The translations under genes and the position numbers were made by a program. 64,000 nucleotides of DNA from a virus (Duplodnaviria > Caudoviricetes): IMG/VR virus record IMGVR_UViG_3300021255_001748, positions 1 through 64,000 of that record; one strand, written 5' to 3'. Position 1 is the stretch's first letter; every line of letters starts with the position of its first letter. Positions 3,995 to 46,136 of this stretch are shown here, in pieces. The notes beneath the pieces are model-generated. The model was not told the DNA's origin, made no database searches, and worked only from the letters and a program-made list of their open reading frames with translations.

Positions 3995-4405
3995 ATGAAG
4001 TACGAAGCTAAGTATTATGTGAATGAGGAAAAGCGGACAGTTGTTTGCACTATTGAGTGTAGTGAGTGGGATGCATTTGATTATATTGAAGGCAGTGATA
4101 TTGTAATCTCTGTTCCCGGCCAGAGCAAGGCTCTATATAAGCATGGCAGGATGCCGTCTAAGTTTGTCGGTATTGCTAAGTGCGCACCCGGCGATAAGTT
4201 TGATGAACATATTGGCCGCCTACTAGCATTCAACCGTGCAAAGGGTAAGTATGATCACGCTTTTGAGGCACGAGTTGTGTATCTGGTGAATCAGTGGGAT
4301 AGACTGCGACAGGAGGTGCTAGAGCGGCTACTACATTATAATAAGAAGGCCGCATATCATCAGAGTCGGCGCAGTAAGGAAATTGAAGAGTATCTAAATA
4401 AGTAA
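3995..4405 (+). CDS. conserved phage hypothetical protein
   Basis: GIAKCAPGDKFDEHIGRLLAFNRA motif typical of phage small proteins. Confidence 0.65.
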   Translation: MKYEAKYYVNEEKRTVVCTIECSEWDAFDYIEGSDIVISVPGQSKALYKHGRMPSKFVGIAKCAPGDKFDEHIGRLLAFNRAKGKYDHAFEARVVYLVNQWDRLRQEVLERLLHYNKKAAYHQSRRSKEIEEYLNK

Positions 4406-4445
4406 AAAAATAAAGAGGGAGCCATTAGGCTCCCTCATTTTTTAA
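4406..4445. terminator. bidirectional intrinsic terminator between convergent genes
   Basis: GAGGGAGCC-ATTA-GGCTCCCTC stem with an A-tract on one side and a T-tract on the other. Confidence 0.8.
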
Positions 4446-5939
4446 TTGCTTTTCAAGTGCGGCAATGCGTGTACCAAGTTCAGTATACAAATGCTTAATA
4501 TTTTCAAACTCTTCAATAATAAGGTTATTGTCATTATCATTCTCATTATCTTCAGGTTCTTCAATAACGGCAGGCTCAGTCTCAGCAGGTCTTACTCTGC
4601 TCTCCAATAGCGTCCAAGTCTGCTTGCCTACTATACCATCAATTAATAGCCCTTCCTTCTGCTAAAATGCACGAACCGCTACATCTGTTTTAGTACCAAA
4701 AATACCGTCAGCAGTGCCGCAATCATATCCTAGCGCATTTAACATAGTTTGAAGTTGCTGAACATCAGTTCCCTTAGAACCCTTCTTTACTGTTCTCATA
4801 ACTTTTACCTCCCCGGCATTTTTAATTTCTTTTTCATCATATAATCCAACTGGAATAGCGTAGTGTGTCCAGGCTTTATCAGCTACAGAGCCAGTCTATA
4901 CATTTACGGAACAATGAATAATATCACCATCGCCTATGTGTAAGCCAGTATGTGCCATTTTACCAGTTGATTTATTATATTGAAATACACAACATACAAC
5001 ATTGGGCATATCTTTAATCTCGCCTTTCTGCACCCAGTTGGGATTGTGGTTATACTGTGAAGTGCAGCCGCCGCCAGCTAGTGCAACTGCTCCCGCTTCT
5101 TTTAGACAATCATATGTAAAGCCGCGGCAATCAAATATTTTTGTATTGTGCCATTTGCATGTTTCGCATGTGGCGCCTTTAGTACCATTTAATACAGGGC
5201 ATTTACTAATAATAGTTGGATGGTCACTTCTAGCTCTGCGCTTACGATTAGCGGGCGTACATGCTTCACCCCATGCGCCAAATACATATGGATAGCCTAA
5301 ATAACTTTTAGCAAGTTCTACAACTTTCTTCGCTTTTTCGCTCATCATTCTCACCTCTGCTGCTCCATATTCACTCATAAGAGTGGTGTTTGGATAATAA
5401 AAGTCTAATATTTGTTTATATGTAAAGCCGTGACTTGAAGCATATTTGGCACCTCGCTAGCTCATGCCAACGCCATGACCTTTTTTACCTTCACCTGCGG
5501 CCGCATCCCATGGGTCATCATAGGCAAGCAAATAGCCTCTTACACCGCCCCAGCGTTCTTGACTTGATACTGTGCGGCCGCCATTACTTGCAGAAAATAC
5601 AGTGCTTGCAACTTTTCCGCCATAAAATAATACTTGTCCTGCTGTTGCATTAGCAGCGTCAATGCAATTCTAGTAATTCTTACTATAACGTGGAGCTCTA
5701 TAGGCTTGTGCACTAGATGAAGAATCTGAAATTGCTGCGCCATTTAGTACTCCGCGTGACATTGCAAAGGTACGGCTAGCTACTGCCTGAGCTTTTAAAG
5801 CCTCTGGGCCACCAGACGCAAGTTCCGATGCTACTACTGTTGCAACATATTGTTCAAACTCAATTTCTACAATATCATTAATATTACAGCCGAAGAAATT
5901 AGCATTCTCCGTTCTAGTTATTTTTACCTAAATTAGCAT
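4425..5939 (-). CDS. modular endolysin: SpoIID/LytB + NlpC/P60-like peptidase + peptidoglycan-binding domain (504 aa, code 15)
   Basis: One frame when TAG=Gln: EALKAQAVASRT, GHGVGMS(Q)RGA, QILDFYYP; YVFGAWG..DCRGF..HTGLHIG; KKGSKGTDVQQLQTMLNALGY..DGIFG..DGIVG; GAGGTG RBS. Confidence 0.85.
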
Positions 5940-8943: not shown

Positions 8944-9504
8944 ATGATAAGGCTGATACAGCGACGCTTAATTATTCCACGCGGTGATACGGGAACTTTT
9001 ACCGTGCCTTTGTTAGCCACGGCCTAGACGGGTGATGCATCAGTATTTACAATCTTTGACTAGAAAACACAGAAAAAAGTTTTTGAAAAGATTGTAACTA
9101 TTAATGGTGAGACACTATAGATTGAGTTTTCTCACGCAGATACAGTTAATCTACCAGTCGGTGATTATGTATGGGATATTAAGTTTTATAAAGACCCTGT
9201 AATTGTTGATGATAAATTAATAAATGGAACAGAAATTGATTCATATTATGCAGCTTTTAAATTACCTGTTTGTGAAATTAGATAGACAGGTGATACATTA
9301 TTAACCGCAGATGACGCGCCAACAACCACTATCGCGCCTGATTAGCTAAATATTATATTAGCGGCAATTAATGAGGCCAATATCGTCAAAGATGCAATAA
9401 CTACATTGAACGAAGCTGACATTATATCTCGTATTACACAGTTAGAAGAAAAAGTAGAAGCTTTACAGTAGGCACTTTCAACACTTGTAGATTCTACTAC
9501 ATAA
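8944..9504 (+). CDS. BppU-like baseplate/tail Ig-like protein (code 15)
   Basis: IIPRGDTGTF..EFSHADTVNLPVGDYVWDIK; open only when TAG=Gln. Confidence 0.65.
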
Positions 9505-31459: not shown

Positions 31460-31780
31460 CTCGTGCTTTGAGATCAAATGTGGCTTCAGCAGTATAAATA
31501 TGTAATGCCGATGTGAGATTATGATGTAAGCCTTTAGCTTTAAAGACTATTTAAGTGGTGAGGCATACTCCTAATTATGCCCTGGCTACCAAAGCAAGAA
31601 AAAATATTGGAACTCTTAACACGGATTTAGCACTTAAACTACCATCGGCACGAAAGCCGCCGCGAAAGCAATTAAGAATGCTTGGATTAACAAGTAGGCG
31701 GCTCAGTAGTGATATGTGGCATAGCGGAAAAGAGTATAAATGAAGCGAAGTAAAGTGCATTTTATAACAGGAGTGATACA

Positions 31781-32722
31781 ATGGGAGTTTATACAGCGAC
31801 GGATCTAAGGCAGATGTAGTCTCTGCCATTAGAGGCAAAAATTGTAAAAAGTCAAGAACGAATCAAAGAATATTACGATTACTTCAATGGAGAAGTATAT
31901 GTATCTTTTTCAGGCGGAAAGGATAGCACAGTTCTTCTACACTTAGTAAGAGAATTGTATCCAGATGTAAGAGCAATGTTCGTTGATACTGGACTTGAAT
32001 ATCCGGAAGTCAAAGAATTTGTAAAGTCACAAGAAAATGTTACTATTGTAAGACCATCAAGAACTTACAAACAAGTCATTGAGCGCTTTGGTTATCCAAT
32101 GATTAGTAAGATGACTGCTAACTGTATTGCGACCGCACGTCGTGATCCAAACTCTACTCGCGCCAAGTACTTAACAGGAGAAATCCCAACAAAAGCATTT
32201 GGATATGGTAATGGTAGATGGTGGCCTATGGTAACAGATGCTCCCTTTAAAACTAGCGGCTATTGCTGCGAAGTAATGAAGAAACAACCTGCTCATAAGT
32301 TCAATAAAGAAACTGGGCTAGTGCCTTTTATCGCTACGTTGGCTGATGAATCAGTTAATCGGCGGCTAAATTGGTATAAAGAAGGTTGTAATAGTTTTAA
32401 GGGCAAAGATTCACAAAGTAAGCCTTTATCATTTTGGACTGATTAGGACATATATCATTATCTAAAAGATAACAATATTCCATATTGTCCTTTATATGGT
32501 GATATTGTAGAGAATGAAAAAGGCGAACTAGTTACTACTGGTATTGAACGTACTGGTTGTATTTTCTGTGGATTTGGCGCCCATCTTGAAAAAGAACCTA
32601 ATCGTTTTCAACAGTTAAAGAAAACTCATCCAAAACTATGGGACTATTGTATGCGTCCTATTGAAGAAAATGGATTAGGAATGCGCGAAGTTTGTGAATT
32701 TATGAAAATTCCCATTGAGTGA
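31781..32722 (+). CDS. PAPS reductase family protein (313 aa, code 15)
   Basis: M(Q)SLPLEAK..VSFSGGKDSTVL..DTGLEYPE..CCEVMKK..RTGCIFCGFG. Confidence 0.85.
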
Positions 32723-32821: not shown

Positions 32822-32945
32822 TATTTAGTGGCGGAATATGTAGACGCTTACGGGAGCAATAAGATTACTGCGTCAAAGCGAAATTACTTGTTCGCAGTGC
32901 TTGCACTAATGTAATTATGTTTGGTGAAAATCCAGACCTAAATAT
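32822..32945 (+). ncRNA. tRNA-like RNA (copy 1) with non-canonical central region
   Basis: acceptor TATTTAG/CTAAATA; Leu-type D-arm; 6-bp T-stem; no standard anticodon arm. Confidence 0.6.
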
Positions 32946-32974: not shown

Positions 32975-33001
32975 ATATATGTAAACAAGGAAAGGAGATA
33001 T

Positions 33002-33568
33002 TAGGTTAGTAAATTTTGAACCAAGTGAAGATGTGCTAACCACACAGCTTGGGCTATCCGTATAGTAGCTGTCACTGCCCGAAGGATACTTTTGGTTAAA
33101 CAGCCGCCGAAACAGTAATGTTAGGTGATAAAGGAGAAACTCCAAATACTAAGGATAGGCGCTTGGGTGTTCGCAATCAAAAGCACTTTTCCTCTCGGCT
33201 ACATAATAGAAAGCTTGTTGAATAGACGAGCCGAATCCAGATAAGGCATTGGGGTGGTAGCCAGTGCAAACTCTGGAAATACCATAAGTAGCTATCGGCG
33301 TTGATGAAAGCCGGAAACGGCATATAAGAGAGGTTTATGGTGGGAGTAGGCCAAAGCGACGTACAAGTAATATTGAATAAGAATTATTGAATATTGCTGA
33401 ATGGTTTGGCTGAAACTTGAAGGTAGTCAATCCTTCCTACACTAGGCGAAAGCGGATCGAAGAAGCTATGGGGTCGCTACCTATGGCTCAGCCTTTGGTT
33501 CTGTAGTGGCTGAATATGATTGAAGAATGACTTGAGTACGGCGAAGGTCGCAATAGTTTACTAACCTA
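33002..33568 (+). ncRNA. large structured ncRNA, ROOL-like candidate
   Basis: 12-bp perfect terminal helix TAGGTTAGTAAA/TTTACTAACCTA; own promoter; no ORF; length and tRNA context fit ROOL. Confidence 0.6.
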
Positions 33569-33598
33569 ATATCTCCTATTTCTTTTTTGGAGGATAAT

Positions 33599-34531: not shown

Positions 34532-34885
34532 GGGGTAGTTTTGGTTTCGACAGGTTATGAATGGTATTGAAATCACGGGTAGGCGGAGCACCTTACGCAG
34601 CAAAACAATTGAACTGACAATGATTATTTTTATAGCGAACTAAAGGCTGCTTAATTGCAGTTTCGCACCTAAACAACAAACCTGCTAATCGGTAAATGTT
34701 TGCGGTTCAAAGATAGATTAGTAGATTGGCTTCAGGCCAGCTGATTTTCTCTATTCACAGTCCAACGAATAGAGTGGTGGAAGGATCATTCCCAGTTTGT
34801 CAGAACTTAAAACTGACTATCGTGTAAGTAATTTTCAATATTGATTGTAGCTTGGACAGGGGTTCAACTCCCCTCTACTCCACCA
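34532..34885 (+). ncRNA. ssrA: tmRNA
   Basis: 5' GGGGTAG..GGTTTCGACAGG; 3' GGACAGGGGTTCAACTCCCCTCTACTCCACCA; tag frame DNDYFYSELKAA-TAA. Confidence 0.92.
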
Positions 34886-36088: not shown

Positions 36089-36192
36089 AATGCGGTGGCG
36101 GAATATGTAGACGCACATTGCCGGAATGTGAGGGCTTCTGGCTCCGGCTACGCAGATTAGACTCATGTGAGGTGCGAATCCTCACCCGCATT
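36089..36192 (+). ncRNA. tRNA-like RNA (copy 2)
   Basis: AATGCGG/CCGCATT acceptor; D-arm identical to the 32822 element; 6-bp T-stem. Confidence 0.6.
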
Positions 36193-37087: not shown

Positions 37088-37195
37088 TAGTTTGGAAATC
37101 AGCGAGTTCTCCCACGAATAAAGTCAGCGCTGTAAAAGTGAGTAACGGTCGGTAAAATAAAAGTTGTGAGGTCGTTGATAGGCAACAAAATATAT

Positions 37196-37284
37196 AGCCC
37201 CTTAGTTGAATGGCACAACAGCGCTCTCTAAAAGCGTAAGCGTGGCTGACACCGCGGGTCTCCGTTCGAATCGGAGAGGGGCTG
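37196..37284 (+). tRNA. amber suppressor tRNA (anticodon CTA)
   Basis: AGCCCCT/AGGGGCT acceptor; GCGCT-CTCTAAA-AGCGT; about 22-nt variable arm; canonical T-arm. Confidence 0.85.
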
Positions 37285-37288
37285 TTAT

Positions 37289-37422
37289 CTGGGTGTAGCG
37301 CAGTTTGGTAGCGCATCAGATTTGAAAATCTAGCATAATGGTAATGCTTTATATCAGAGTTCAACTCTCTGGATTTTCACGGGATCTGAGGGTCGTGGGT
37401 TCAAATCCCACCACCCAGACCA
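37289..37422 (+). tRNA. tRNA-Pro(TGG) interrupted by a 57-nt tRNA-like insert
   Basis: canonical Pro arms and CCA; removing 37324-37380 restores TCAGA-TTTGGGA-TCTGA. Confidence 0.85.
37324..37380 (+). ncRNA. anticodon-less mini-tRNA nested in tRNA-Pro
   Basis: acceptor GAAAATC/GATTTTC; D-arm GCAT-AATGGTA-ATGC; T-arm CAGAG-TTCAACT-CTCTG. Confidence 0.8.
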
Positions 37423-37555
37423 ACAGGATGGCATGTAACCTGTCACAATCTGCATAGCTGAGTGTAGATAAAAACATGCTTATCAGCATTTAGCGCCGTT
37501 TGATTTATTCTGTAAAAGAGGAGACTCTTTCGGCGCATTTTTAATTGGAGGACAT

Positions 37556-38971: not shown

Positions 38972-39380
38972 GCGGGTATGGCGGAATAGGCAGACGCCAC
39001 AGACTTTTGTAAAACAAAGAGCACTAGAATAGGAAACTTTCTGAGTGAATGCTGGCTAATTCGGTGAAAGTCCTGATAGGATAACGCCGAGCTAAATTAA
39101 ATATGGCGTGTCTAGTATAAGATAGCAGATAATAATTTATCTCTGAAAACATATAAACTGCAGATAGGTATATGCAAGTAAGTAATACAAAAATAGAGGG
39201 GCAGTACCTCGGCACGTCTCATATTTATAAATGTGTAGAGACTATATACCAGCCACCTAAGTCGTAAGATAAGGTGAAGACATAGCCCAGACTACAACGC
39301 AGTAATGCGGCTATGGTAACATAGAGTAGTAAGAAAATCTGTTGTCTTCGGACGTGCCGGTTCAAGTCCGGCTACCCGCA
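38972..39380 (+). tRNA. tRNA-Leu(TAA) split by a group I intron
   Basis: exon 1 38972-39006 and exon 2 39334-39380 join to ACAGA-CTTAAAA-TCTGT. Confidence 0.88.
39007..39333 (+). ncRNA. group I self-splicing intron (327 nt, no internal ORF)
   Basis: P1 with U.G pair at the 5' splice site; AATTCGGTGAAA; R GTAGAGACTA; S GAAGACATAGCC; terminal G. Confidence 0.88.
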
Positions 39381-39427
39381 CTCCTTATTTCATTTTTCTA
39401 TGCGGCGTCTCCTTTCCGCCGCATTAT

Positions 39428-39653: not shown

Positions 39654-40178
39654 TTAGGGTTGTGTTTAATGAGCACGGCCTTCGGGAAGAATTTCCCGTG
39701 TGACCAGCAAGTCTAAAAACTGTCATGGGCTGGGTGGGATGCCCTAGGTCCATCGTATTATAAATACTGAGTTTCTCTTGACTCTGGGAAGTTCCCTAAA
39801 CAAGATTATAATCCTTGCCCACCTGAAAGCACGGGTTCAAGGCAGAAAACATGCGGTCCAGCTGGACGCGACGATGGTTAGTTTGGGGTTTTACACCACT
39901 AACAAGGGGCTCGTCTAATGACCTCTTCAAGAACGAAGAAGTAAGCGCTTTGAGCCCTTATTAAAAATCAATAGGAGCTATGAAGTACTGCTATTTGGCT
40001 TAATATTCGGCAGTTAGGCAACGCAGACGTGTGATCCTATAAACAAATCCTATTGATACTATAATGAGTAGATGTTTATCTACCTAGGACTATTGAGGAC
40101 GAGAGCGGTGGGAATGTTTGAGCGGCAAAGCCGAAGGTAAATAGTCTAAGTACAGGCCACCTGAGCGTGGTCTGAGTA
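39654..40178 (+). ncRNA. candidate structured ncRNA of about 525 nt
   Basis: ORF-free and GC-richer, between two tRNAs; helices such as CCATCGT/ACGATGG. Confidence 0.4.
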
Positions 40179-41284: not shown

Positions 41285-41770
41285 ATGCCTACTTTGTACA
41301 TTATGTGCGGTATTCCTGGCTCCGGAAAAACTTATTTTGCTCGTAATTTTCTTCATGCTGATGTTACTGTATCTCGTGATAATATTCGTTTCATGATGCT
41401 TGATGATGAAGATAATTATTTTGACCATGAGCCAGAAGTATTTAAAGAATTTGTAAAAACCTTAGTACATCACTTGCATTACTTTGATACAGTAGTAGCA
41501 GACGCCACTCATCTTAATGCGTGGTCTCGTAAGAAGCTTACGAATGCTATTGATAAGTATATTACCGATTACCGCATTGTTTATGTAGTGTGTGCTCCTT
41601 CTCTTCAAACGTGCCTCTATCGTAATAATAAGCGCACTGGCCGCGCCCGTGTACCAGAAAAAATTGTGAAAGAAATGTATGATAAATTTTGTCCGCCAGT
41701 AAATGACGCATACAAACTGGAAGACCCCCGAGCTGTTGGCGTTTGGTGGATTAACGGCGAACCAAAATGA
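41285..41770 (+). CDS. polynucleotide kinase-like P-loop protein (AAA_33)
   Basis: MCGIPGSGKT; VSRDNIR; DATHL. Confidence 0.8.
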   Translation: MPTLYIMCGIPGSGKTYFARNFLHADVTVSRDNIRFMMLDDEDNYFDHEPEVFKEFVKTLVHHLHYFDTVVADATHLNAWSRKKLTNAIDKYITDYRIVYVVCAPSLQTCLYRNNKRTGRARVPEKIVKEMYDKFCPPVNDAYKLEDPRAVGVWWINGEPK

Positions 41771-42363
41771 ATATTTTCTTCACTAGTGATACTCATTTCT
41801 TTCATAACCAATCATTCATTTACGAACCTCGCGGTTTTACTTCCGCAGACGAAATGAATGAAGCGCTAGTAGAACGATGGAATGAAGTAGTCAAAGAAAA
41901 TGACATTGTTTATCATCTGGGCGATGTATTGATGGGAAATTATGATGTTAATATTCTCAAACGACTTAATGGGACTATCCATTTAATTCAAGGCAATCAC
42001 GACACAGATAACAAACTTAGCGACATCTACGCAACTGGAAAGGCGACTAATATTACACAAACCAGCGAACTTATAAAGTTCGGCAAACTAAGACTTTTTT
42101 GTTGCCACTATCCAGTTCTTACTGCTAATTTTGATGATAAGCATTTTTCTCAACATATCATTTCATTACATGGACACACTCATCAAACCTCCGATTGGTT
42201 ATTTTCAGATAATCCCTTTATTTATCATGTTGGTTTAGATTCACACAATTGTTATCCTGTAAATTTAGATACAATTATTGCAGATATTCGTAACCGTTGG
42301 AACCAATTAGGCCAATTACCGATTATGTTAAATAATGACCATCATAAAAATTTCACCTCCTAA
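41767..42363 (+). CDS. calcineurin-like metallophosphoesterase
   Basis: SDTHFFH, HLGD, GNHD, CHYP, HGHTH. Confidence 0.85.
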   Translation: MNIFFTSDTHFFHNQSFIYEPRGFTSADEMNEALVERWNEVVKENDIVYHLGDVLMGNYDVNILKRLNGTIHLIQGNHDTDNKLSDIYATGKATNITQTSELIKFGKLRLFCCHYPVLTANFDDKHFSQHIISLHGHTHQTSDWLFSDNPFIYHVGLDSHNCYPVNLDTIIADIRNRWNQLGQLPIMLNNDHHKNFTS

Positions 42364-44040: not shown

Positions 44041-45282
44041 ATGTTAAATGCTAAACAAGAACGTGAACTTGCTTATGTTGTAATTATTGATGGTATTGAG
44101 CCTATTCCCGGTTATGATCGCGTTGAAACTGCAATCGTTGGCGGCTGGCATGTAATTGTTCAGAAGGGTCAGTTTAATGTAGGCGATCCGGCTATCTACT
44201 TTGAAATTGATTCCCGTGTGCCTTCTGATAAAGAATGCTTTGCTTTCCTTGAGAAGCGGCATTACAAAATTAAAACTTTGAAGATGTGTAAGACTATTTC
44301 ACAAGGTTTGCTTATGCACGCTTCCGATTTTGGTTGGGAAACTTGTGAATGGACCGATACTAATACTGGTGAAGGTGATGTTGGTATCGCCGATGAAACT
44401 GGAGAAATTCATTGGAGTAAGCGAGAATCTCGTTTCCTTACCAAGAAACTTGGTGTAACTTATGCCGACGATGAAGACAACCAGCGTAAGGCTCCTACTG
44501 TAGATAAGTATAAGAAAATGGCCGCCCGTCATCCCGAAATCTTCAAGAAATCTTGGGCTAAGTGGATGATGAAACATAATTTTGGCAGAAAAGTGATGTT
44601 CTTCTTCTTTGGTAAAAAGAAGGATAAGAAAAACGGCTGGCCAGTTTGGGTAAAAAAGACTGATGAAGAACGAGTGCAAAATATGCCTTGGATTCTAAAT
44701 GATGATGGTGACTGGATTGCCACCGAGAAGATTGATGGAACTAGCACTACTTTCTCTATGAAGCGCGGCAAATTTGGGCACAAATCTTTCTATGTTTGTT
44801 CCCGCAATGTATGCTTCGGAGAAGAAAGCAAAGAATGCTATTATGATACCAATGTATATTGGGAAATGGCTAAGCAATATGACATGTTCAAAGTGCTATC
44901 TAATTTGATGGCGGCTTATCCTAACGAAGAATGGATTACCATTCAAGGTGAAACTTTTGGTGATGGCATTCAGCGGCGAGATTATTCTCTCTGTGGTGAG
45001 CATGATTTTCTAGCATTCAATCTAATTTTCTCTTCTCGCGGTCGTGTAGGCACTCTTGAAATGATTGATATTCTAGACCCATATGGAATTGAATGCGTAC
45101 CTGTACTTGATCGTAAAATGAAAATTAATCAATTTGAAAATGTAGACGATATTCTTGCTTATGCAGAAGGTAAATCTTGTTTGGATAATCTGCCTCGCGA
45201 AGGTATTGTATTCCGTTCTATTGATGGTTCCAAGTCTTTTAAAGCTGTAAGTAATAGTTTTCTTCTAAAGTATCATGCTTAA
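44041..45282 (+). CDS. RNA ligase, Rnl2/Rnl5 (DRB0094-like) family
   Basis: N-terminal IEPIPGYDRVE..YFEIDS; motif I EKIDGTS; QGETFG; EGIVFR; FKAVSNSFLLK. Confidence 0.85.
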   Translation: MLNAKQERELAYVVIIDGIEPIPGYDRVETAIVGGWHVIVQKGQFNVGDPAIYFEIDSRVPSDKECFAFLEKRHYKIKTLKMCKTISQGLLMHASDFGWETCEWTDTNTGEGDVGIADETGEIHWSKRESRFLTKKLGVTYADDEDNQRKAPTVDKYKKMAARHPEIFKKSWAKWMMKHNFGRKVMFFFFGKKKDKKNGWPVWVKKTDEERVQNMPWILNDDGDWIATEKIDGTSTTFSMKRGKFGHKSFYVCSRNVCFGEESKECYYDTNVYWEMAKQYDMFKVLSNLMAAYPNEEWITIQGETFGDGIQRRDYSLCGEHDFLAFNLIFSSRGRVGTLEMIDILDPYGIECVPVLDRKMKINQFENVDDILAYAEGKSCLDNLPREGIVFRSIDGSKSFKAVSNSFLLKYHA

Positions 45283-45500: not shown

Positions 45501-46136
45501 ATGTTACCAAAGATTCATCTAACAATTGAACGCTGGCGAAAAAATAAAGAGTATGGTGTATATGTATCAACTTGTGGGCGGGTTAAATTGATTAAAAATA
45601 AGGAATTACTTAACCCGCGCATTAATGAACGAGGCTATTGCACTGTCTTCACAGACAAAGGCGCTGTAATGGTGCATAGACTCGTCGCATATACATGGCT
45701 TGGCGGTAAACGCAATGCTATGTATAATGTTGACCATATTAATAGTAATAAGCGTGATAATTCAATTAAAAATCTACGTTGGGTTACTATTGAAGTAAAT
45801 AATCAGTACGCGCAGTATACACAGACTAACATTGTGCCAGCGGCTACTGAAGTAGTAGAAGAAACGCCTATTGAAAAAATTGAAGATGAATTTACAATTC
45901 TTTATTCAGAAGAAGCAAGTATTAATGACAAGATAAAGGCATTTGAACAGTTGTATAAAGATAAGCGTCTTTATTTGAAATATAATGGACGAGCAATTAT
46001 AGAATATTTACAGCTGTTTGATATTAAATTTCCTGGCAATAAGCCAAGAAAAAATGTTTTTCTAGAAAATGTTATTAATGCTTGCATCAATAGGCAAGAA
46101 TATGGTGGTTATAAATGGGAATTAATTAAGAAATGA
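45501..46136 (+). CDS. HNH endonuclease
   Basis: VHRLVAYTW..VDHINSNKRDNSIKNLRWVT. Confidence 0.8.
   Translation: MLPKIHLTIERWRKNKEYGVYVSTCGRVKLIKNKELLNPRINERGYCTVFTDKGAVMVHRLVAYTWLGGKRNAMYNVDHINSNKRDNSIKNLRWVTIEVNNQYAQYTQTNIVPAATEVVEETPIEKIEDEFTILYSEEASINDKIKAFEQLYKDKRLYLKYNGRAIIEYLQLFDIKFPGNKPRKNVFLENVINACINRQEYGGYKWELIKK

Follow-up and report, generated by a model that had tools for sequence, protein, structure and literature searches.

Introns in phage tRNA genes

To our knowledge, bacteria and their viruses are thought to be devoid of protein-dependent tRNA splicing, and the tRNA introns known from them are self-splicing elements of group I or group II. The closest described relatives of the element reported here are the tRNA introns of the Lak megaphages, which were called enigmatic at the time of their description; the intron of the Thr(TGT) gene was noted as possibly tRNA-encoding, and no mechanism was given (Devoto et al. 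2019, Nat Microbiol, PMC6784885; Fig. 4, Table S6). A full-text literature search found no paper describing a mechanism for phage tRNA introns of this sort, and the Lak introns constitute the only published precedent. The present analysis concerns a 57-nt insert (37324..37380, + strand) in the anticodon loop of a tRNA-Pro gene (37289-37422) carried by a 64,000-nt stretch of DNA from a virus of the Caudoviricetes. This stretch, referred to below as the window, comprises the first 64 kb of the 77-kb IMG/VR virus record IMGVR_UViG_3300021255_001748, a rumen-type phage fragment with a CheckV completeness of 44%. The insert has itself the shape of a small tRNA, and inserts of the same design interrupt other tRNA genes of related phages at the same position. 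We tentatively favor the reading, to which we grant somewhat less than an even chance, that it would be a protein-dependent, tRNA-mimicking intron released by cuts of the RNase P and RNase Z (or RNase E) type, with an Rnl5-like ligase sealing the exons between nucleotides 34 and 35 of the tRNA.

To call this nested-tRNA splicing route new would overstate the novelty of the object itself, since the Lak tRNA introns precede it: both are short anticodon-loop inserts in a phage tRNA gene, both lack an Rfam intron match, and both are present or absent between related phages. Even the D-arm of a Lak insert, GCAT-AGTGGTTA-ATGC, is close to that of the window insert. The layout appears to differ from that of these barely described introns, as judged from the Table S6 sequences re-read here. 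The Lak inserts lie between nucleotides 36 and 37, place a hairpin leader of about 30 nt before the tRNA-like part, have a hairpin at their center and stop directly after the discriminator base. In the window, the whole insert is the mini-tRNA: it starts with base +1 of its acceptor directly after nucleotide 34, lacks an anticodon arm and ends one base past the discriminator.

Structure of the interrupted tRNA-Pro gene

The Rfam tRNA model matches the 134-nt gene from end to end (58.8 bits). Its 5' exon (nucleotides 1-34 of the tRNA, 37289..37323, + strand) provides the acceptor strand CTGGGTG, the D-arm, the anticodon stem TCAGA and the loop bases UUU, and its 3' exon (nucleotides 35-76, 37381..37422, + strand) continues with GGGA, the stem TCTGA, the variable loop, the T-arm, the acceptor strand CACCCAG, A73 and an encoded CCA. 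The pair C1-G72 together with A73, as found at the ends of the interrupted gene (CTGGGTG...CACCCAG-A-CCA), is the identity signature of bacterial proline tRNAs. Excision of the insert on paper from between nucleotides 34 and 35 yields the anticodon arm TCAGA-TTTGGGA-TCTGA, and with it a cloverleaf with a 7-nt loop UUUGGGA, anticodon UGG and G37, that is, a regular tRNA-Pro, as the sequence-only reading had proposed. The splice boundary is ambiguous by one base, given that a G flanks the junction on both sides. Intact Pro(UGG) genes exist in four relatives (L003, L008, L011, L034), and every intron-less Pro gene of the relatives carries UGG. Both in the window and in a related IMG/VR record (G001), the interrupted gene is the sole Pro gene of the tRNA array. 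In its intron mode, ARAGORN reads the gene as Phe(GAA) interrupted by a 55-nt intron, an artifact of the forced 37/38 intron position; this call was rejected because it requires a shifted stem, because the Pro identity elements are in place and because the intact orthologues are all Pro(UGG).

All the tRNA elements that had been read in the insert are present. A 7-bp acceptor, GAAAATC/GATTTTC (37324-30 and 37372-78), is followed by a UA linker equivalent to U8A9 (37331-32), the D-arm GCAT-AATGGTA-ATGC (37333-47), a 7-nt linker in the place of the anticodon arm (37348-54), the T-arm CAGAG-TTCAACT-CTCTG (37355-71), the discriminator A73 (37379) and an extra C (37380), all on the + strand. On its own, the insert (37324-37379) matches the Rfam tRNA model RF00005 with 42.9 bits (E 8.7e-9; curated cut-off 29); the alignment spans model positions 1-71, stops at A37379 and keeps the acceptor, the D-arm and the T-arm in register. 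Eighteen model positions corresponding to the anticodon arm are replaced by 3 nt, leaving nothing with which to decode; the insert mimics a tRNA without being one. It retains U8, A14, G18G19, A21, T54-T55-C56, A58 and the pair G53-C61, and these elbow nucleotides are those read by RNase P and RNase Z. With this full elbow set and the Rfam score, the claim that the insert is tRNA-shaped holds.

Structure predictions and a pattern scan point in the same direction. The predicted fold of the insert agrees with the drawn structure (-13.7 kcal/mol, z -3.1), and that of the 134-nt precursor retains both sets of cloverleaf arms, the mini-acceptor being stacked on the anticodon stem (z -4.2). When the window is searched strictly for a 7-bp acceptor that directly adjoins a 5-bp T-stem closed by a TTCRA loop, 20 sites are retrieved, every one of them on the + strand; besides the insert, they correspond to the interrupted tRNA-Pro and to 18 other tRNA genes. 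Thirty shuffled versions of the window used as control give a mean of 0.03 sites, and a relaxed version of the scanner proved too noisy for use.

Neither a group I nor a group II intron model (RF00028, RF00029) matches the insert at E<=10, and the same scan does detect a group I intron elsewhere in the window (38997-39312). Rfam models of small self-cleaving ribozymes (hammerhead, twister, pistol, hatchet and others) find nothing on its transcribed strand; the one weak match is a twister-P1 fragment on the minus strand (10.8 bits against a cut-off of 67). The absence of a catalytic core asserted by the sequence-only reading is thus confirmed for these models, and, because it is only 57 nt long and lacks a group I or II core, the insert cannot splice itself. 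A bulge-helix-bulge (BHB) intron, in which a 4-bp helix flanked by two 3-nt bulges marks the splice sites, was also considered and rejected: the predicted fold of the precursor places the 5' site within an uninterrupted helix and forms a single 3-nt bulge, at the 3' site.

Recurrence of the tRNA-Pro insert

The whole 134-nt gene is also found in the IMG/VR record G001 (L002:3243-3376) and in a 174-kb metagenome contig (L056), with five substitutions relative to the window; L056 and L002 are identical in the tRNA-Pro region. Three of the five fall within the insert, at D-loop position 16/17 and T-loop positions 57 and 59, loop positions that vary in real tRNAs too. The other two constitute a compensatory exchange of G-C for A-T in the T-stem of tRNA-Pro between the window and L002. 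From this pattern of substitutions, the tRNA-Pro exons look functional, and the interrupted gene is by all indications real and under selection.

No match to the locus was found by blastn against the INPHARED phages and no exact 24-mer of the insert in IMG/VR, where a Pro pattern anchored on the exons retrieves only G001. The same pattern gives 18 matches in metagenome contigs, of which those to L056 and to a contig with a different, 48-nt Pro insert (L055) are real and the rest noise; a search for additional copies through neighboring genes returned three loci only.

A family of inserts between nucleotides 34 and 35

Relatives of the window were fetched through the RNA ligase gene described below and their tRNA arrays were re-parsed by hand from ARAGORN intron calls. 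In addition to the tRNA-Pro insert of the window and L002, this revealed inserts in Thr(UGU) genes of 117 nt (L003 and L034), 87 nt (L011 and L026) and 72 nt (L013 and L028), in a Lys(UUU) gene of 69 nt (L015), in a Gln(UUG) gene of 86 nt (L073/L128), in a probable Asn(GUU) gene of 46 nt (L128:5899) and in a second Pro(UGG) gene of 48 nt, on a short metagenome contig (L055). All share the same construction: base +1 of a 7-bp acceptor directly follows nucleotide 34 and the T-arm abuts the 3' acceptor strand. Their removal restores in every case a 7-nt loop and an anticodon that fits the tRNA body. The subtype defined by the 34/35 position is accordingly represented in the window, L002, L003, L011, L013, L015, L055 and L073, together with the probable Asn gene at L128:5899, and the window insert belongs as well to the broader class of phage mini-tRNA introns, short anticodon-loop inserts with a tRNA-type acceptor/T-arm module. 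A profile search with the ligase brought 71 new loci, with 47 tRNAs and one more intron among them. Two new matches of a pattern search anchored on the Thr gene turned out to be pairs of adjacent tRNAs and were discarded as false.

Conservation resides in the pairing and not in the letters. MAFFT misaligned the inserts and the helices were put in register by hand in a script; across seven of them (window, L002, L055, L013, L011, L003 and L015), all 49 acceptor pairs and all but one of the 35 T-stem pairs are standard. The stem sequences are unrelated, with two to four pair types at each acceptor position, and G53-C61 is invariant, as in real tRNAs. The inserts of L013 and L015 taken alone also exceed the Rfam tRNA cut-off (33.1 and 32.4 bits, respectively); that of L055, which has no D-arm, does not reach the model. 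The central region ranges from 7 to 66 nt, the window insert being the most reduced among those with a full D-arm. The interrupted gene is the only copy for its anticodon both in the window (Pro) and in the complete genome G002 (Thr(UGU)). The pair C1-G72 occurs in four of six distinct mini-tRNAs, which is no more than a lead in view of the RNase E cut after CCA suggested for C1 proline tRNAs (PMC5291269).

Presence and absence of the inserts alternate between close relatives. The window and G001 have the Pro insert and an uninterrupted Thr(UGU) gene; G002 and the record of L034 show the reverse arrangement. Between alleles with and without the intron, the exons are identical at 58 of 73 positions for Thr and 58 of 74 for Pro, against 84/88 upstream and 71/79 downstream of the Thr gene and 101/108 upstream and 75/80 downstream of the Pro gene. 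The exons having diverged more than their flanks, whole tRNA cassettes or long co-conversion tracts would therefore have been exchanged, and not the bare insert.

Three more genes were recorded with inserts. The one at L128:3624-3803 (G018 31623-31802), possibly another interrupted tRNA, is a tRNA-like gene of 180 nt (Rfam tRNA 23.7 bits) into which about 106 nt are inserted. A distant relative (L029, G015) has two AT-rich tRNA genes on the minus strand (4388-4505 and 9130-9252) with 42-49-nt inserts in the anticodon region, one of which ends in TCCA.

Insert boundaries and tRNA end processing

At the 5' boundary, a U precedes every insert of the family except the probable Asn insert (L128:5899), which follows G34. 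U at position -1 is the leader base preferred by bacterial RNase P. It is also the usual base in front of the real tRNA genes of these phages, where it occurs in 48/58 genes of the clade of the window, in 21/32 and 24/32 genes of two other phage groups and in 12/13 genes of G018. The window insert combines the substrate features of RNase P and RNase Z: a 12-bp acceptor/T stack, a D/T-loop elbow, U(-1), a purine at 73 and C74.

At the 3' boundary, the tail of the insert tracks the style of the tRNA genes of its own genome. In G010-G014, where 31 of 32 tRNA genes encode NCCA, the Thr and Lys inserts end in UCCA or ACCA immediately before nucleotide 35. In the clade of the window, 37 of 58 tRNA genes are CCA-less; their position 74 is C in 19 genes and T in 18, and position 75 is T. 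In G018, CCA is missing from 12 of 13 genes, and 11 of these 12 read N73-C74-T75. In such CCA-less genomes the insert tails are reduced to 2 nt (A-C in the window, A-U in the Gln insert) or 1 nt (Asn), and thus the window insert, ending in A-C, does not place NCCA directly before nucleotide 35. An exception to this rule is the Thr insert of L003, which ends in UCCA inside the mixed-style clade of the window. The retention of C74 without C75 and A76 in CCA-less genes may reflect a contact of RNase P with C74 or a 3' cut after C74.

Enzymes with suitable specificities have been described. RNase Z of Bacillus subtilis and of methanogens cuts after the discriminator if the precursor is CCA-less and immediately after CCA if it is present, and the Thermotoga enzyme cuts after CCA (PMC7479834). 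RNase E of Escherichia coli cuts immediately after CCA in proline tRNAs (PMC5291269).

RNA repair genes downstream of the tRNA array

Three genes for RNA end processing lie 4-8 kb downstream of tRNA-Pro on the same strand. The first (41285..41770) encodes a polynucleotide 5'-kinase (P-loop, Pfam AAA_33; phrog_505, E 6.6e-22) that resembles the Pnkp1 and Clostridium thermocellum Pnkp kinases of the PDB, and the second (41767..42363) a metallophosphoesterase (Metallophos_2; phrog_547, E 3e-47), a candidate 2',3'-phosphate end-healing enzyme. The third (44041..45282), 6.7 kb from tRNA-Pro, is the candidate exon sealer. Its product joins an N-terminal OB fold (PF21189, 11-92) to a nucleotidyltransferase domain (PF09414, 224-403; phrog_968), and among solved structures it is closest to the Naegleria gruberi RNA ligase 5cot (E 4.8e-30), an assignment that narrows the Rnl2/Rnl5 type previously given to it to an Rnl5-type RNA ligase. 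The Rnl5 family seals 3'-OH/5'-phosphate ends, the same ends that RNase P and RNase Z leave. The ligase is conserved in all relatives.

No match to the splicing endonuclease (PF01974, tRNA_int_endo) or to RtcB was found in G000, G001, G002, G004 and G007, three of which are complete, and these five related phage records likewise gave no match to an RNase Z-type metallo-beta-lactamase or a CCA-adding enzyme. We know of no bacterium that has the PF01974 endonuclease. With these families not found in the five records, the cuts would therefore have to be made by enzymes of the host or by a nuclease that escaped recognition. Just downstream of the ligase gene lies a free-standing HNH/NUMOD4 homing-type endonuclease gene (45501-46136), for which no link to the intron sites was seen.

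A possible route of excision and sealing

The anatomy of the insert, its family, its boundaries and the enzyme genes were read directly from the DNA; from them we infer every catalytic step of the following route. The pre-tRNA-Pro would fold with the mini-tRNA stacked on the anticodon stem, and host RNase P would cut at base +1 of the mini-tRNA (U37323|G37324), so that the 5' exon ends in a 3'-OH. In the 3' tail of the mini-tRNA, the cut would be made by an endonuclease that processes tRNA 3' ends, of the RNase Z (or RNase E) type; a 7-nt loop requires this cut to fall after C37380, and the 3' exon would be left with a 5'-phosphate. The two halves, held together by the tRNA body, would be joined at 34/35 by the phage Rnl5-like ligase to give tRNA-Pro(UGG) and a free mini-tRNA of about 57 nt. 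This tentative reading is chemically coherent and has the boundary statistics in its support. The original proposal of excision by RNases P and Z with sealing by the phage ligase accordingly keeps the backing of the tRNA mimicry, the +1 start after U, the Rnl5 ligase and the recurrence of the inserts, and it falters at the 3' site.

Four observations weigh against this route. If RNase Z cut at its canonical site, after A37379, it would miss by 1 nt the junction that a 7-nt UGG loop requires and would leave C37380 on the 3' exon, giving an 8-nt loop; therefore, a simple P-plus-Z rule does not by itself produce the mature tRNA. Furthermore, no single ruler measured from the insert helix fits tails of 1, 2 and 4 nt, while the position on the host tRNA, 34|35, is constant. 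The products of RNase P and RNase Z need neither a kinase nor a phosphoesterase, yet both genes adjoin that of the ligase. Finally, since the ligase served to find all the relatives, its occurrence alongside the introns provides no independent test. As for the 3' site, one reading is a cut displaced by one base: pairing of U37323 with A37379 would make C37380 the first unpaired base. This reading, with its UGG outcome, is favored because the intact Pro genes of the relatives all have UGG. The Gln insert of L073, with its 2-nt tail, cannot discriminate, as +1 and -1 cut choices both give the loop CUUUGAC.

Alternative explanations

The main rival is a heal-and-seal pathway like that of yeast Trl1. 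An endonuclease of the phage or the host, similar to anticodon nucleases and positioned on the host tRNA, would cut both junctions at 34|35 to leave 2',3'-cyclic-phosphate and 5'-OH ends, which the kinase and the phosphoesterase would heal and the ligase would seal; in that case, the tRNA shape would have a role in folding, in recognition or in some second function. The 34/35 bond is the cut site of colicin E5 and of the zymocin gamma-toxin. A complete kinase/phosphoesterase/ligase set adjoins the array and fits 5'-OH/cyclic-phosphate chemistry just as well, and a nuclease guided by the host tRNA would explain why the cut is constant there and not with respect to the insert helix. However, no candidate endonuclease was found, tRNA_int_endo being absent from the five related records, and this pathway leaves unexplained the exact +1 start of a tRNA-type helix, the NCCA ends and the kept elbow nucleotides. 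On balance we consider it unlikely, while ranking it first among the alternatives to the RNase P-dependent route.

Another possibility is that the mini-tRNA, once released by RNase P and RNase Z, is the useful product, as a decoy for tRNA-targeting defenses or a mimic of uncharged tRNA, or else a selfish element, and that the tRNA-Pro halves are by-products or remnants of a dead gene. The array does contain free-standing tRNA-like RNAs without a proper anticodon, and close relatives differ in whether they have the insert, with intron-bearing alleles that look like swapped cassettes (exons 78-79% and flanks 90-95% identical). Nevertheless, the exons stay perfect, with a compensatory change in the T-stem, removal restores a 7-nt loop and a sensible anticodon in eight independent cases, and the interrupted genes are sole copies for their anticodons (Pro in the window, Thr(UGU) in G002), all of which makes this explanation rather improbable.

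Still less probable, in our judgment, is the same excision with a different product. RNase P cutting at +1 and RNase Z after A37379 would generate the 8-nt loop UUUCGGGA, possibly of a +1 frameshift suppressor, and RNase P cutting at -1 combined with the same RNase Z cut would generate UUCGGGA, with anticodon CGG. Both variants use the canonical RNase Z site after the discriminator (PMC7479834), and the second would be allowed by the complementarity of U37323 and A37379, shared by the equivalent bases of the L073 Gln insert. Against them, all the intron-less Pro genes of the relatives are UGG, the 5' junction of the family lies at +1, and an 8-nt loop would be odd to conserve in a sole Pro tRNA. 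The last alternative, an assembly chimera or chance hairpins, can practically be dismissed: two further assemblies (L002 and L056) carry the gene, about 0.03 sites per window are expected by chance, and the Rfam E-value is 8.7e-9.

Genomic context of the tRNA array

The interrupted gene belongs to a 14-kb, + strand array in the window that contains 22 tRNA genes and a tmRNA in the default ARAGORN search, and 24 tRNA genes when introns are allowed. Inside it lie a ROOL RNA (32997-33570; Rfam 340.7 bits), the tmRNA (34532-34885; tag GAPYAAKQLN) and a cow-rumen-3-like RNA (39657-39754) that scores 74 bits, below the cut-off of 86.7. The tRNA-Leu(UAA) gene at 38972-39381 holds a genuine group I intron (Rfam Intron_gpI, 50.3 bits, 38997-39312); hence two intron types, group I and mini-tRNA, coexist in a single array.

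Other features of the array were recorded in passing. A tRNA(CUA) of amber-suppressor type with a long variable arm (37195-37285) lies 3 nt upstream of tRNA-Pro, and its counterparts in three relatives (L002:2798-3063; L022:15711-15979; L023:9787-10055) have inserts of 173-177 nt after the anticodon, below the typical length of group I introns. Directly 3' of the tRNA-Pro CCA, a 66-nt segment (37423-37488) with two hairpins and without Rfam match is present in the window and L002 and absent from the intron-less allele of L003. Two free-standing tRNA-like RNAs (32822-32945 and 36089-36192) have a Leu-type D-arm, a 7-8-bp acceptor and a T-arm without a proper anticodon arm, and may be relevant to anticodon-less tRNA mimics as products in their own right.

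Comparison with known systems

Taken to its full extent, the favored route would amount to a third kind of tRNA splicing in phages of bacteria, neither self-splicing nor of the BHB type, in which a mini-tRNA is cut out by the enzymes with which the cell trims tRNA ends (RNase P, RNase Z or RNase E) and a phage ligase joins nucleotides 34 and 35, which would make the supply of the tRNA dependent on the phage ligase and yield a free anticodon-less mini-tRNA as a second product. We regard this broader proposal as plausible and, on present evidence, more apt to fail than to hold. Were it true, it would represent a new splicing logic built from universal housekeeping enzymes and a ligase so far tied only to repair, and it would explain the Lak megaphage introns, enigmatic since 2019. 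It would also point to an easy means by which a phage could gate or protect the tRNAs that it encodes, and a 134-nt substrate with three small enzymes makes the hypothesis directly testable in vitro.

With the BHB tRNA introns of archaea and eukaryotes and the group I tRNA introns of bacteria or phages, the window insert shares its location in the anticodon loop. It differs from them by lying at 34/35 and not at 37/38, by the absence of a bulge-helix-bulge and by the lack of a splicing endonuclease gene among those found. A closer parallel on the side of cleavage is offered by tRNA punctuation and by MALAT1/mascRNA, where RNase P and RNase Z free a tRNA-like module from the longer transcript that contains it. 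In these systems, as predicted here, a tRNA-shaped module sets two precise cut sites, with a 3'-OH upstream and a 5'-phosphate downstream. The flanks are never rejoined there, whereas those of the window insert are the two halves of one tRNA and would need ligation.

On the side of sealing, the comparison is with the heal-and-seal systems, represented by T4 Pnkp/Rnl1 acting against PrrC, yeast Trl1 and bacterial Pnkp-Hen1. Both there and in the window, an ATP-dependent RNA ligase is encoded alongside a kinase and a phosphoesterase, and the substrate is, or would be, a break in the anticodon loop. In contrast, the window ligase is Rnl5-like, with an N-terminal OB fold, and not an Rnl1, and the three activities reside in separate genes. 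If the favored route is correct, the RNA ligase and end-healing kits of phages would gain a constitutive job beyond countering anticodon nucleases: the breaks handled by the known systems come from a defense nuclease or the Sen endonuclease, and those of tRNA-Pro would come from an insert encoded within the tRNA gene itself.

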